From the NCBI RefSeq assembly GCF_003018235.1, contig NZ_CP027437.1: DNA of 64,000 nucleotides; one strand, written 5' to 3'. Of this stretch, positions 1 to 12,000 are shown one piece after another. Within the stretch, counting starts at the first letter, position 1. Every line of letters begins with the position of its first letter. Source of the DNA: Escherichia coli (lineage in GTDB: Bacteria > Pseudomonadota > Gammaproteobacteria > Enterobacterales > Enterobacteriaceae). The position numbers were made by a program.

Positions 1-3000
1 GATAACGGGCAGTTGCATCACTGCCCGCTGTGTTTTAATGGAAAATGACGTCAGGTGCGCTTAACGCCTCACTCAAATCAAACACATCAAGTTCGGCAAA
101 AGTGACGGATTTATTGTCACGGTACACTCGAAGAGAACGGAAGCTCATTAGCGCTTTGCTATCAACATTGTAGTGGTTAAAACCGGGTGAAAACTTAAGG
201 ACCAGCCGGTACTCACCCAGGTCATAGACAAATGCGTCCTCATAGCCTGACTCCCAGCCTTTGTATCGCATTCCCATAAGTTGCCCAACGGTAGCGGATT
301 TACCTTCCCAGCGAGTCAGGCTGTTACTGGTTGACTCGTCAGGTGTGAGCAGCACCGTGCGGCGCGACAACTGGCGAAAAGGCGGCATAATTTCGTAATC
401 GGCAAAAAGCTGTGCAAATTCACTGCGCATTTCTGCTGTCATTTCTAACGGGTGGGCAATGCCAATCAGAGCATCCGCAGGAAGGTCAATGGGCTCATCC
501 TGCGCATTGCAGAACTCCCCCTCTGCGGCCACACGAAAGGCGTTGAGTAAACGACGCGGTTCATTTGCCGGATAAACCCCCCATATTAATCGCTGGGTAA
601 CCAGGCGGGTAAAGGGATGATTAACAAACAGAGAATGAAAATCTGCCAGCGACCAGCGTCGGGTGGTACGTAGGGCAGCTTCAAGACGCGGGAGCAGGTT
701 TTTGCTCACCTGAGTAGCATCTTTTTTTAGCCCTTTTAGTCGGGCCAGTGCCTCGGGCGCTTTTAGTTGATCGTCATCGGCACGCAACCGGGGAACGCTT
801 TTCTGGCGAACGTTTTGTTGATCAAAGGTAACCGGGTTGAGGTTTTCATCGAAGCGAACGGTAAACTGCCGGGGACCAAAATCAAAAATCAACGCCTGCG
901 GATCATCAAGACCCAGTGTTGGGACTAATCTGTCCGCTAACTCTTCCTGGCTTAGCCCGCGATTTTCTGCGACCACCTGAAGAAATTCCGCTGCGTTTTC
1001 ACGTAATGAAGAGGATTTCGCCCGTTGTGATACATGATGCAGCTGTATCAGCGCCATATCATTATTCATCAAGGTAAGTATATTCAGACCAATGACAGCA
1101 CGGGCAGATTTGCCTTCTTGTGGCCAGGCGAGGATCTGTGTCGTCAGATCCCGAGCCGTGCTTTCGTCACCAAAGAGACTTAACGCCAGAAATGCCCAGT
1201 TGTCTTTTGCGGGGGCACCAGCTTGTTGCCACGCAGTGAAGAGATCCCAGGCAAAAGCGGCCAGCGTTTGTGGCTGGCAAAACGTTTTCAGTTGTTCCAG
1301 ACCGCTATAAAAACGTCCGCCCTGGGTAAAGCGCAGCATTTCGCCGATAATTTCCAGAGCGTCATCGGTAACAGGCTGATTATTAGTGATAAGTCGCGGC
1401 CTGGACCACATTGCCGGATGCCAGAAATCAGGGGCTTTTGGAATGCGTGCCGGGTAAATGTCCATTGGACCCTGTTTAAGCAACTGCTCCAGGGCAGGCC
1501 ATACATCAGCGCGTTGCCAGCGGTTTGCCACGGTTTGCAGCAACTCGCCATGTCCCTGTTCGTACAGTAAACGCAGGGCAAGTAATGCGGCTTCGCTATT
1601 ATCGCTGGGTTTGGTAAAGACAAGAGGGATAAGTGCAGTAGCCGTATGTTCCGGCCATTGTAAAATCCACTGGCGAGCCAGATCACGCTGCACCGCGAAA
1701 CGTCGCCAGACGCGGGCAACGGGCAGGGCCAGTTCTGTTGCGCCAAAATTTAAAATTAACGGAAATGTTTCTTTTGGACGATGTAAAAAAGCCAACATCA
1801 GACCTGGTAGCGCATCCAACCCGAGGATACTGAGAAAATAGTCCTCACCCGCGAACAGATGTTTTTTCTCATTGATACGCAGCCAGAAGGTCAAAGCCAT
1901 CTCACGCGGCAACTGTGCCAATAAATACAGGTTCCAGACACTCTTTTCCGGACGATAACGTGAGTAGTTGTCATTTTCCCATATGTTAATTAACGCTTCT
2001 TCGTGACCGCTGCGAAGCGCCTGTTCTGCTAATTGTGCTTCCGGGGAGTTCCAGCCATTCAGGATCTCTTCAACCCGTCCCTGGTAGTAATGCCACTGAA
2101 CAATGAGTGAATTGCGTGCAGCATCCAGTTTTCCGGGGAGTATATAATTCAGAAACAGCCATACATCATCCCCAAAACCCAGTTCCTGTAATACAACTCG
2201 TCCACTTTTTTGTTCCATGCGTTCCGCAAGAGATTCCGTGCTGAAATAACGGGCAGACTCAGTGGCGGCAAGCCTCTCTTGTTCGCCTGGTTGCCAGTAA
2301 ACTTGCGGGGTTAATTCGAGCGGTGCCAAATCAAGACGTGGAGCTGTCATTTTTTTCTTACTACGCCACGGTGGTGAAACGAGGATTTCAGGCAGATTGC
2401 TGTTATCGGTGCCATCAATAACCGGTTTGGGCGGTGCCAATAAATAACTATTCAGTACTGCCCGGGCTTGAGTACTTAACCACTGCATCACCTCTTCTGC
2501 CAGTTGTGTCTGCGATGCCATCAGCGTTTGTAACAACGTACGCCAGTATTCATCTCGAGCTTTTTGCTGGGCAGGCAGCTTTTTGTCTTCGATGATTGGA
2601 TAACCAGGGCGGGCTGGTGGTTCTTTTAACGCCAGCAGTTCTGCCAGTGCCGCGAGCGTCGCGTGGGGGAAGTTTTTACTGTATTTAGCCACACGTTGCA
2701 GGCTGGGTTTGTTTTTATCAGCAACTAACAGCAAGGTGCGGATGACTTGCGGATGGTTAATTTGTACCAGCAGACTGCCGCAATCTTCTTTATGGGCATA
2801 TATCGCGAGGCGCGGAACGACTGCCAGTCCTTGTTCGCGCAAAAGGGCAGCGCAGGCCGCGTAGCCGAAGTGGTTTTCATGCGACATGTAGCTGGCTTCT
2901 CGATCGCTAAATATATCCTGGCTCCAGTAGCGTTCGAGTTTTCTCACCGCTTTGGGGTCAGTAGCAACAACTTTTAACCACTCCTTAGAATGAAAATGAG

Positions 3001-9000: not shown

Positions 9001-12000
9001 CTAGCAGGAGGAGTGCCTGGCGGGAATATTCCCGATTTTGGCACGGTTTGCCCAGCGCCAAAGGTAGTAGCCCGGCGGCGGCATGGCGCGGGTTATTTGC
9101 CAGCCAATTAACGGCATCCTTGTAACCCATTTTTTTCTGTAACCGCTGCGCCATTGGTAAGGCTAGGTCACTGGCCCCAATAAAGAGGGTGAATATCCAC
9201 AGTCGTTGATGATCTCGTTGCAAGCAGGTCATAAACGCAGGAATGGCCGTACTGCCAAAAATCCCCAGAATCTCTTTCTCACCTGAATATCGCTCCTCAA
9301 TGATTATTTGGTTGAGAAATGAAATCGCCTGTTGTCCCGGTAAGTAACAAAGCGCAGATAGATTCCAGCTTTTGTTGGCATTGTTGTGATATTTCGCAAA
9401 CTCAACTTTTAGTGCTGGAAAATCAAAGCGCAACAAGGCATCAACAGCGCTTTGCGGTATATATTTTTTTTCATGTAAGTCATCTTCGCAATGCAGCCAT
9501 TCATTAAAACCTAATTGCCAAAGGATTTGTTGTTCTGGTGTAAAAGGAATGAAAGATGTCTCCCAGCTTTCTTTTTCAATTAGTGGCAGTTCGGTAAATA
9601 AGGTTTGCTGTGATGCCTGATATTGCGCGATTTCATAGAATCTGGATATGTCAGTATGACTGATTAACTCTGTAATTCCTGGTGTGATATCCGTGACGGC
9701 AGGGATGGGAAGTACCGGCAAATCAAATACGGGTATTACATTCTTTTTCTTATTTATTACCCACGGTGGAGCGACAAACAGCTCTGGCAACATATCCGCA
9801 GTGGCATATTCACATTCTTCAGCGACTGACTGCGGACGACATTCAGATAAGATGCCAGCGGCTTTGGCATTAACCCAGGGAATGACGTCGCATACTAACT
9901 CTGGCGTGATGGTAATCAGTTTGATAAGTGCGTTGCGCCACTGTGCATCTTCATGTATTGCCAGCAAAGTTGCATAAGCGGCAATAGCCGCAGCGGGATG
10001 TTTTTGGCAGGCTTTGCTTAAGTATTCCAGGTGCTTTTTCTTGCCATTTACACCGAGGATCAGAATCTGAATCGCATCCGGGTGATTCGTTTTCCATAGC
10101 CATTTGACAAGATTTTCAGTCTCGCTGTTGCGCTCGAAAAGATAAGTGGGATTGTCAGAATGCTCTTCCGTAAACTCAAGAAGGATCTGGCTTACACCCC
10201 GAATTCCATTATTCGCCAGCAACATTGCCAGATAAGCGCGAAAATTACGAAAATCACGATACAACGGTGGGAAGTCGTATTTTTCCACTGTAGTCAGAGC
10301 AGTATCATCGGTTATCACCAGTCTTAACCAGGTCATCGCCGGAACGTTTTGATCTGCATAATGTAGCGCCATAGCATTGGCGATATCCGGGCGTTCAGGG
10401 ATCAGTAACGCCGCAAAAGGTTGCCGTGCTGGGGATAGCGAGGGAATAGCCGCGAGTACCTTATCTACACAGCGTTGCCACTCATCTTCTGAAGCGAGTG
10501 AAAGATGATGACATAGACGTTGATGCCAGTTCGGTAGCGATTCTGCTTTGAGATCAGGGGGAATGATGGTGGTGACGTCGGCTTTTACTGGTTTATATCT
10601 AAGTTGAAGAGCGAGAAGGGCAATTTCAACGGCACTTTCCAGACCACAGCGAATGACTAAGTCATCGACCAGTTCATCTGCAGAGTAAGAGTTCCAGAAA
10701 CTCCAGAGCAATGCTGCATCAGATTGCACACTCCCTGTCTGTTGATTACCCTGAACTCGCATTTGTAACTCAGCAAAAGCCTGCTGCCAGTTTTCTGGAT
10801 AAGAACGGTAATTGTTGGCGGGATCATATGCTCTGGTGTTATTCGCGATGAGCTGCCATATTTGACCATCTTTGTGCAGATAATTGATCTCTCTGGGGCG
10901 AGAGCGATGAGGAAAAGCAAATCGATTAATATCGTCAGTTAGCCGAATGACCGCATCATCAGCCAGCCAGGGGCGTTGGTTTTTACTCTCAGGGGAAGTT
11001 TCAACTTCAGGAGTGGCTTTGGTAATGGGGGGGATATGCACGTTTGCTGAAGCATTTTCCACATAGCCTTTTTTCGTTTTCTCCGCGATAAGATTCAGTT
11101 TCGCTTTTTCCGCTGCTGCAACATCAGCAAAATTTTTTACCTGGCTTTGCCCTTGGGTACCAACTTTTCCCCAGCTGATATGCAACTCGTTTCCCTGCTG
11201 CTCCACCGCCCAGAATTTATGTGATTTTTCGTCCTGATAGATATAACTCTTCATCCGCGTTCCCTGTATTTATATCCAGTTATAAGCGGATGCTAGCAGT
11301 TAATGAAAAAAATTAAGAGCGTTGAACAAACAAGAAAACAACTTTAGGAATTTATAAAGAAAAGGCGCTGTCGATGCAGCGCCTTGAAGGGGGATTATTT
11401 CACCTGATGACCCGGTTTAGCACCGGCATCCGGGCTTAGCAGGAAAATATCTTTCCCGCCAGGACCGGCAGCCATCACCATGCCTTCAGAGATACCGAAG
11501 CGCATTTTACGTGGTGCCAGGTTAGCCACCATAATGGTGTGACGGCCAATCAGTGCCTGCGGATCCGGGTAAGCAGAACGAATGCCGGAGAAGACATTGC
11601 GTTTTTCACCGCCGAGATCCAGCGTCAGGCGTAGCAGTTTGTCAGAACCTTCAACAAACTCTGCGTTTTCAATCAGCGCCACGCGCAGGTCAACTTTGGC
11701 GAAGTCGTCAAAGGTGATGGTTTCCTGAATCGGATCATCTGCCAGTGGGCCAGTAACTGGCGCGGCAGCTGCTTTCACTTCTTCTTTAGACGCTTCCACC
11801 AGTGCTTCAACCTGCTTCATATCGATGCGGTTATACAGCGCTTTGAACGGATTCACTTTGTGGCCCAGCAGCGGTTGCTGGATACCATCCCAGGTCAGTT
11901 CCGTATTTAGGAATGCTTCTGCGCGCTCGGTCAGTTTCGGCAGTACCGGCTTCAGGTAAGTCATCAGCACGCGGAACAGGTTTATGCCCATCGAGCAAAT

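Follow-up and report, generated by a model that had tools for sequence, protein, structure and literature searches.

Several MoxR-type AAA+ ATPases are paired with proteins that carry a von Willebrand factor A (VWA) domain, such as RavA-ViaA, NorQ-NorD and CbbQ-CbbO, or the I and D subunits of chelatases, which are found with a large H/CobN subunit. To the best of our knowledge, Escherichia coli has just two MoxR systems; YehLMPQ is one of them and has no known client, nor do we know of a client for any member of the YehL subfamily. MoxR ATPases and their VWA partners work as remodelling or maturation machines in a chaperone-like manner, and YehL defines a MoxR subfamily of its own (PMC3893208). 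Here we have analysed a stretch of 64,000 nucleotides (nt) of one E. coli strain (contig NZ_CP027437.1, assembly GCF_003018235.1; the window), which starts with three large paralogous genes encoding DUF4132 proteins that we call A (7448-11254), B (3677-7435) and C (35-3667, yehI), all on the minus strand. Our analysis makes it fairly probable that this is an ancestral three-gene haplotype and that these anciently diverged paralogs are interchangeable adaptor or client subunits of the YehLMPQ machine.

The genes and the haplotype are already catalogued: the A protein is present in NCBI, the three-gene form occurs in ~30% of complete E. coli genomes, and K-12 has yehF, yehH and yehI. What is added here is the assignment of B, as judged from sequence similarity and position, as the gene known as molR, the description of the K-12 gene as an A::B chimera in a strain without A, the ancient age of the triplication, and the partnership with yehLMPQ across phyla.

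Three DUF4132 paralogs beside yehLMPQ

According to the six-frame list of open reading frames (ORFs), A, B and C follow one another head-to-tail between metG and yehK. A is an intact ORF of 1268 amino acids (aa) with a WGR domain, a helical solenoid, DUF4132 and a putatively YugN-like tail; it is not found in K-12, and its protein has an exact match in NCBI titled 'WGR and DUF4132 domain-containing protein [Escherichia coli]', encoded on contig AAYSEA010000032.1. B has 1252 codons, also with WGR and DUF4132, and presents one nonsense codon when translated in a single frame; the six-frame list shows it as two pieces (3677-6313 and 6407-7435). C is an intact ORF of 1210 aa with the solenoid and DUF4132, without WGR, and is collinear with K-12 yehI. 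In blastp, A and B share 44% identity over their full length (E = 0), B and C 38% (E = 0), and A and C 31% (E = 4e-170). The alignment of C begins around residues 95-101 of A and B, so that C lacks their N-terminal ~95 aa. Furthermore, direct DNA repeats run across the three genes at a spacing of ~3.7-3.8 kb, which confirms a tandem triplication. The initial annotation of this DNA, made without database searches, had described three head-to-tail paralogs on the minus strand, an intact A with WGR and DUF4132 and a yehI-like third copy of 1210 aa without WGR, and all of this agrees with the ORFs, the mutual blastp matches and the Pfam results.

The array continues into yehLMPQ. The metG-apbC flank is 99.9% identical to E. 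coli genomes, and in the best-matching complete genome the order is yehQ-yehP-yehM-yehL, a gap, yehK, yehI, B, A, metG, apbC and the fimbrial genes yehABCD. A near-identical contig (AAYSEA010000032.1) runs past window position 1 into yehK and then an AAA_5 gene (yehL). The continuation into yehLMPQ had been proposed before on the model of K-12 and can now be seen in the best-matching genome and in K-12, with yehK and yehL also present in the near-identical contig.

More widely, the C-terminal 509 residues of A found 6,204 cluster representatives (50% identity clusters, E <= 1e-3), mostly of 1100-1300 aa, and a locus scan with one genome per species returned 69 loci. These belong to Enterobacterales, Burkholderiales, Xanthomonadales, Alphaproteobacteria and Myxococcota, and further ones to other former Deltaproteobacteria (including Trichlorobacter), Holophagales and Actinobacteria. 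We have tested the linkage by tblastn with E. coli YehL, YehM, YehP and YehQ in those 42 loci whose downstream sequence extends for 7.5 kb or more. As a rule, homologs of the four proteins come immediately after the DUF4132 gene or genes and share their strand: a YehL homolog lies within 2.5 kb downstream on the same strand in 29 of the 42 loci and all four homologs are present in 32, including three Burkholderia loci in which the core is upstream. Most of the exceptions are additional copies in Massilia, in genomes that have arrays with yehLMPQ at their end elsewhere. The copy number varies, as 19 of the 69 loci have 2-8 tandem copies within +/-10 kb and four Massilia loci have 5-8 DUF4132 genes in tandem per ~21 kb, some of them without WGR; where loci on one contig overlap, they suggest about nine copies before a single yehLMPQ set. 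The Massilia copies are intact ORFs of ~1150-1250 aa in which WGR and DUF4132 are conserved and the solenoid and tail are variable, the same mosaic as that described below for A and B. The conserved cassette is thus [WGR-DUF4132]n, YehL (MoxR-type AAA+), YehM (DUF5682), YehP (VWA) and YehQ (SWIM zinc finger), and its conserved same-strand adjacency is found in this strain, as seen through the near-identical contig, in E. coli and in the 42-locus set. Because this synteny is conserved across phyla, a functional link between the WGR/DUF4132 proteins and yehLMPQ is well supported at the level of sequence.

The gap between yehK and yehL, beyond window position 1, measures 1.2 kb in the near-identical contig (21598-22838) and 0.3 kb in K-12. 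We take z3289/z3290 and the antisense small RNAs (sRNAs) of this gap to be what is now named zor-orz. These type I toxin genes and their antisense sRNAs are present in the yehK-yehL gap of most E. coli and not in that of K-12 (PMC2887945).

The Pfam search by hidden Markov models (HMMs) of A, of the two B fragments and of C bore out the earlier domain calls. WGR (PF05406) is found at aa 8-69 of A (11048-11233) and at aa 7-67 of B (7235-7417, E = 2.8e-18, on the N-terminal fragment), and C showed no WGR match in this search. DUF4132 (PF13569) is found at aa 1002-1185 of A (7700-8251, E = 5.4e-50), at residues 633-818 of the C-terminal fragment of B (3953-4510, E = 6.9e-51) and at aa 954-1138 of C (254-808, E = 3.1e-47), in all three cases nearly spanning the whole 179-position model. 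The head has both the HMM match and the fold of a WGR domain, and its central motif reads W-G-K, not W-G-R. The only NCBIfam match was a partial one, at the level of WGR, to a 'fibronectin-binding' family of Leptospira, well under the cutoff and uninformative. An AlphaFold2 (AF2) model of A residues 760-1268, built with 88 sequences, reached a predicted local distance difference test (pLDDT) of 94.9 and presents helical repeats, then an alpha/beta domain that corresponds to DUF4132, and then an alpha+beta tail of ~100 aa. Foldseek of this model against the PDB gave nothing significant, and no solved structure could be assigned to the DUF4132 core. The tail shares just 7-15% sequence identity with YugN-like proteins (PDB 2pww, 2r5x) and has no Pfam match. 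The architecture predicted for A and B is a WGR head, a flexible linker, a long all-alpha HEAT-like solenoid, the alpha/beta DUF4132 domain and a small YugN-like tail, and that of C is the same without the WGR head. Conservation between A and B follows this architecture: identity is 75-88% in the WGR head, 20-45% in the solenoid, 65-90% at ~858-1150 (the DUF4132 region) and 20-36% in the C-terminal tail.

The paralogs are old. In Klebsiella spallanzanii, yehL is preceded by three copies that match A (55%), B (65%) and C (56%) best, one to one and in the same order, and the third of them, the C ortholog, likewise has no WGR. From these orthologs, both the triplication and the lack of WGR in yehI are ancient, and yehI is an old and stable architecture. 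The initial annotation had spoken of differential domain loss and decay: the decay part holds for B, whose stop codon is recent, whereas the absence of WGR in yehI is ancient, as K. spallanzanii and Massilia indicate. Synonymous divergence (dS) between A and B is saturated in every segment (dS >= 1), being 1.0 in WGR and 1.7 in the DUF4132 region. Gene conversion was considered as the origin of the high A/B identity in these two regions and was rejected because of the saturated dS, so that their protein conservation reflects purifying selection and not recent conversion. The ratio of nonsynonymous to synonymous divergence (dN/dS, omega) between alleles is 0.1-0.45, not ~1, in all regions with measurable synonymous divergence, and the A, B and C genes are maintained over the long term. 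At the scale of segments we found no positive selection, omega being 0.07-0.63 in every segment with measurable dS. Within E. coli, omega is 0.044 for yehL and 0.024 for yehP versus 0.14-0.19 for yehM, yehQ and yehI; the YehL/YehP core is far more constrained than its partners.

Regarding expression, the A-B spacer has 12 nt (7436-7447, minus-strand read AAGGATTTAGCA) with a Shine-Dalgarno-like AAGGA directly before the B start codon, and the B-C spacer has 9 nt (3668-3676, minus-strand read GGAAAGAGC) with the Shine-Dalgarno-like purine run GGAAAGAG on the coding strand. From this 9- and 12-nt spacing, A, B and C look like one co-transcribed unit with coupled translation and a start of its own downstream of metG. 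The terminator scan found a terminator-like hairpin after metG on the same strand (11362-11385; 9-bp stem with 6 GC pairs, followed by a T-run), which is the upstream boundary of the array, and the promoter of A must lie in 11255-11361. The promoter scan of the ~100-nt leader of A gave no strong or convincing sigma-70 site, and Rfam found no RNA family within window positions 1-11,400. Three plus-strand antisense ORFs inside the genes (1223-1570, 1458-1841 and 4960-5262) were treated as spurious.

K-12 molR, the stop codon in B and variation in E. coli

In K-12, the order is metG, yehF (a 274-aa WGR fragment), the yehH pseudogene, yehI, yehK and yehLMPQ, and the interval from metG to yehI is 3.9 kb versus 7.7 kb in the window. 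By tblastn, yehF (b2115) and yehH (b4499) are a single frameshifted gene of ~1264 codons, which is 66% (aa 1-939) and 96% (aa 938-1252) identical in aa to B of the window, 90% and 95% identical to the B allele of strain PEC011, and just 38% and 58% identical to A. In reciprocal similarity and in its position directly upstream of yehI, it is B and not A that corresponds to this gene. The molR ortholog is B, the copy that is knocked out in the window, and A is absent from K-12. The initial annotation had taken A as the molR-like intact ancestral form, which these identities contradict, and it had correctly stated that molR is broken in K-12, where yehF/yehH has a frameshift and a stop.

At its 5' end, this K-12 gene differs from its body. 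At the positions that separate all sampled A copies from all sampled B copies, it is A-type at nt 8, 15, 111, 123 and 141 and B-type at nt 168, 186 and 199, and the spacer upstream of yehF matches the A leader. Moreover, the WGR-coding segments of A and B form a direct repeat (D2) with 84% nt identity over 198 nt. The A-type 5' end on a B-type body shows that K-12 molR is an A::B chimera, in which a deletion of ~3.8 kb between both WGR-coding segments has removed the body of A. The chimera was broken after its formation by a frameshift and a stop, lesions that differ from the TAA of the window. With regard to yehI, C is its ortholog (1210 aa in both the window and K-12, dN 0.020, dS 0.10), and window positions 1-5530, which contain C, are contiguous with K-12 at 94.9% nt identity.

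The nonsense codon of B is an in-frame TAA at codon 343 (6407-6409, minus strand), the only internal stop among its 1252 codons, as single-frame translation shows and as had been noticed before. In TB06051 and CS6L, two strains with this same B allele, the corresponding codon is AAA (Lys) and the frame is open over 1252 codons, so the lesion amounts to one A-to-T substitution. GCA_016625795.1 (contig AAYSEA010000032.1), which differs from window positions 1-21254 by 2 mismatches in 21,254 bases, carries this TAA as well, and the exact 61-mer around the TAA is found in none of 5,426 complete E. coli genomes; in 509 of them, 80% or more of this 61-mer is matched, with one differing base in the best cases. 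As a second assembly carries the TAA and none of the complete genomes does, it is most likely genuine, private to the lineage and recent. A sequencing artefact was considered and is unlikely given the second assembly, the independence of both assemblies being unproven. The two mismatches between the window and GCA_016625795.1, at 7367 (the WGR segment of B) and 8581 (A, just before DUF4132), both fall in segments conserved between the paralogs, and cross-mapping of the paralogs in one of these assemblies, instead of true strain differences, may be the reason.

All but one of the 5426 complete E. coli genomes (5425) have at least a part of the locus, at a fixed core position. Full-length A is found in 1629 (30%), with 88-98% nt identity, and the remaining genomes match just ~186 nt of A, which are WGR-coding. 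Three genomes sampled from this A-less majority all have a two-gene form, with one intact WGR-DUF4132 gene of 1262-1264 aa followed by yehI. About 70% of complete E. coli genomes are thus without A and have the two-gene form of K-12, in which the chimera is often intact.

A survey of intact and decayed states, which the initial annotation had suggested, found lesions in A, B or C in different sampled strains. All three genes are intact in CS6L and also in TB06051, where B is an intact ORF that RefSeq splits into two 'pseudogene' pieces. The window has A and C intact and the nonsense codon in B; in TUM13936, B is shortened to 1010 aa between an intact A and an intact C; and in O157:H7 strain 4276, A has an internal stop and B is fragmented while C is intact. 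In PEC011, A and B are intact and C has lost its 3' end by a deletion from yehI into yehM. Among the two-gene strains, the chimera is intact in 2015C-4498 and K71-77, where C has a frameshift and an internal stop, respectively, and broken in K-12, where C is intact. Each paralog has been lost independently in different lineages, and losses of a single paralog recur.

Two of these strains deserve a further comment. In TB06051, B (12677-16435 of its locus sequence) is annotated in RefSeq as two 'incomplete' pseudogene fragments and yet is an uninterrupted ORF of 1252 codons, so that decay counts based on annotation would overestimate pseudogenes at this locus. In PEC011, the deletion (3010-5184 of its locus sequence) joins a 5' piece of yehI with a 3' piece of yehM and removes yehK and yehL; with A and B intact, this strain is a natural 'partners without motor' genotype.

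The alleles of A, B and C are deep and mosaic. Between the window and O157, dS is 0.34 for A and 0.036 for the adjacent metG, and between the window and PEC011 it is 0.64 for B and 0.17 for metG. In one and the same gene pair, some segments have a dS of ~0 and their neighbours one of 0.2-0.66. Between strains, identity is typically 90-95% at the locus and 95-99% in the flank.

Elsewhere in the window, the fimbrial chaperone gene yehC (16086-16807) is split into two ORFs in different frames (139 and 97 aa) and is not called as a gene in the near-identical NCBI contig either, so it is probably a pseudogene in this strain. The yehE/yehD fimbrial region (14500-16000) has a GC content of 0.36-0.39 versus ~0.50 across the DUF4132 array. 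Two ordinary E. coli features were found at the Rfam gathering threshold, a thiamine pyrophosphate (TPP) riboswitch at 22297-22393 on the plus strand (71 bits) and the CyaR sRNA at 50737-50822 on the minus strand (101 bits).

Possible roles of the array

If A, B and C are interchangeable large adaptor or client subunits, the conserved DUF4132 region of each paralog would dock onto the invariant AAA+/VWA remodelling core of YehLMPQ, the WGR head would provide nucleic-acid binding, and the divergent solenoid and tail would set the target specificity of each paralog; the YehL ATPase would then remodel or activate the bound complex. These assignments come from the conservation mosaic and from the established MoxR-VWA systems. 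This strain has just lost B through its private AAA-to-TAA mutation, with A and yehI remaining; in K-12, A is gone because its WGR-coding segment recombined with that of B, and the resulting chimera was broken afterwards.

Several points weigh against this proposal. We know of no physical interaction or phenotype of DUF4132 proteins, and the literature searched holds no functional account of DUF4132; docking, nucleic-acid binding and specificity have all been deduced from patterns of conservation. In the WGR motif, K takes the place of R (W-G-K), and yehI and other copies without WGR indicate that this head is dispensable in some paralogs at least. About nine loci have a DUF4132 gene and no yehLMPQ within 10 kb. 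Finally, the frequent pseudogenisation in E. coli, the laboratory strain included, indicates that no single paralog is needed under ordinary conditions.

We have also considered that the array could be part of a conflict or immune system, in which tandem hyperdiverse paralogs sense invading nucleic acid or protein and trigger a YehLMPQ response, and which would then be an unrecognised chromosomal defence-like system. The Massilia arrays (6-8 copies per 21 kb), the constant docking region accompanied by variable regions in each copy, the deep mosaic allelic lineages (within-gene dS from 0 to 0.66, the locus being more divergent than its flank), the recurring presence/absence variation and pseudogene polymorphism, and the fold that WGR has in common with the DNA-break sensor PARP1 would all fit such a role. 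However, PADLOC-DB 2.0 gave zero matches at E <= 0.01 for A, both B fragments, C and YehK, YehL, YehM, YehP and YehQ; no effector domain (nuclease, toxin or NADase) is recognisable; dN/dS is below 1 in every segment tested; and the position of the cassette in E. coli is core and fixed (5425 of 5426 genomes). In other taxa the flanks are housekeeping genes and not defence genes: the ten genes flanking five loci in other genomes comprise eight housekeeping families (e.g. topA, sohB, sspB and lepB) and two without a match, and their only PADLOC match is a topoisomerase matching DpdF, with no true defence match. Homologs are absent from 50,697 phage records and occur in just 30 of 72,556 plasmid records, mostly of megaplasmid or chromosome size. 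An immune role is therefore unlikely in our opinion, and the 'stress or defence-like module' of the initial annotation was a speculation to which neither a PADLOC match, nor a defence island, nor a link to mobile elements lends support. We are similarly doubtful about a surveillance system of a new type, widespread and fixed in chromosomes, in which HEAT-repeat sensor arrays with PARP-like, nucleic-acid-binding WGR heads and a separate solenoid and tail for each paralog would pick out different foreign or damaged nucleic-acid/protein targets and hand them to a common MoxR-VWA-SWIM motor. If it were true, the copy number (from 1 to at least 8) and the deep allelic mosaicism would reflect an arms race, and the three-gene, two-gene and pseudogene polymorphism of E. 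coli would be its population-level footprint.

A housekeeping maturation chaperone, with YehLMPQ maturing an enzyme complex or inserting its cofactor and the DUF4132 proteins as its substrate-carrying subunits, has a precedent in the MoxR family (PMC3893208). A large subunit of ~1250 aa beside AAA+ and VWA subunits is a similar architecture, the cassette is chromosomal and in a housekeeping context, and some database entries keep the name 'molybdate metabolism regulator' from the historical molR, which may relate to such a role. On the other hand, K-12, the strain in which molR was defined, has this gene as a broken chimera; the WGR head and the SWIM finger point to nucleic-acid or protein recognition and not to metal chemistry; multi-copy arrays and extreme allelic diversity would be unusual for a cofactor-insertion factor; and no conserved client enzyme gene lies beside the cassette across the taxa examined, all of which makes this role rather improbable. 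It could also be argued that in E. coli the locus is a decaying relic without function, the intact A and yehI frames being chance survivors, as independent nonsense, frameshift and deletion lesions are found in A (O157:H7), in B (the window, O157, K-12 and TUM13936) and in yehI (PEC011, 2015C-4498 and K71-77). We consider this very improbable, because ORFs of 3.6-3.8 kb are open in most sampled strains, dN/dS is 0.1-0.45 and not ~1, one-to-one orthologs have been kept since the Escherichia/Klebsiella split, and strains with three intact copies exist.

Under the reading that we favour, of paralogs serving as adaptors or clients of YehLMPQ, the constant-plus-variable mosaic and the paralog arrays make the hypothesis of specificity modules directly testable. 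K-12 is a poor background for such studies, as it has no A and a broken A::B chimera, which may explain 30 years without a phenotype, and natural strains with all three paralogs intact, such as CS6L, exist.

Comparison with known systems

Our literature searches on the yeh genes, on WGR with MoxR and SWIM, and on WGR with anti-phage found nothing functional. The region has been mentioned in another context, as an ST131 sublineage has been described with a blaCTX-M-15 transposon inserted in its 'metG/DUF4132/yeh region' (PMC9334617). The closest described locus is that of K-12, which occupies the same site between metG and yehK-yehLMPQ and in which yehI (b2118) and yehF-yehH are orthologous to C and B, respectively; it differs in having two genes, not three, and in keeping of A just the first ~141 nt, fused to B.

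At the level of domains, the WGR head can be compared with those of PARP1, PARP3 and the Bacteroides fragilis WGR protein 2ra8. In contrast to these, the proteins of the array have neither the PARP catalytic domain nor the helical regulatory domain, and their motif is W-G-K; from the similarity of fold, we infer that the head may bind nucleic acids or DNA breaks as PARP1 does. The YugN-like proteins that the tail may resemble (PDB 2pww and 2r5x) are small alpha+beta proteins, themselves uncharacterised, and this resemblance gives no functional lead.

Finally, none of the characterised MoxR systems has WGR/HEAT/DUF4132 partners, tandem partner arrays, or DUF5682 and SWIM subunits. The likeness of our locus to RavA-ViaA, NorQ-NorD and CbbQ-CbbO, and to the YehL subfamily of Snider and Houry, is that the array is syntenic with the MoxR ATPase YehL and the VWA protein YehP across phyla. 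Our analysis nominates the WGR/DUF4132 proteins as conserved, copy-number-variable partners of YehLMPQ across phyla.

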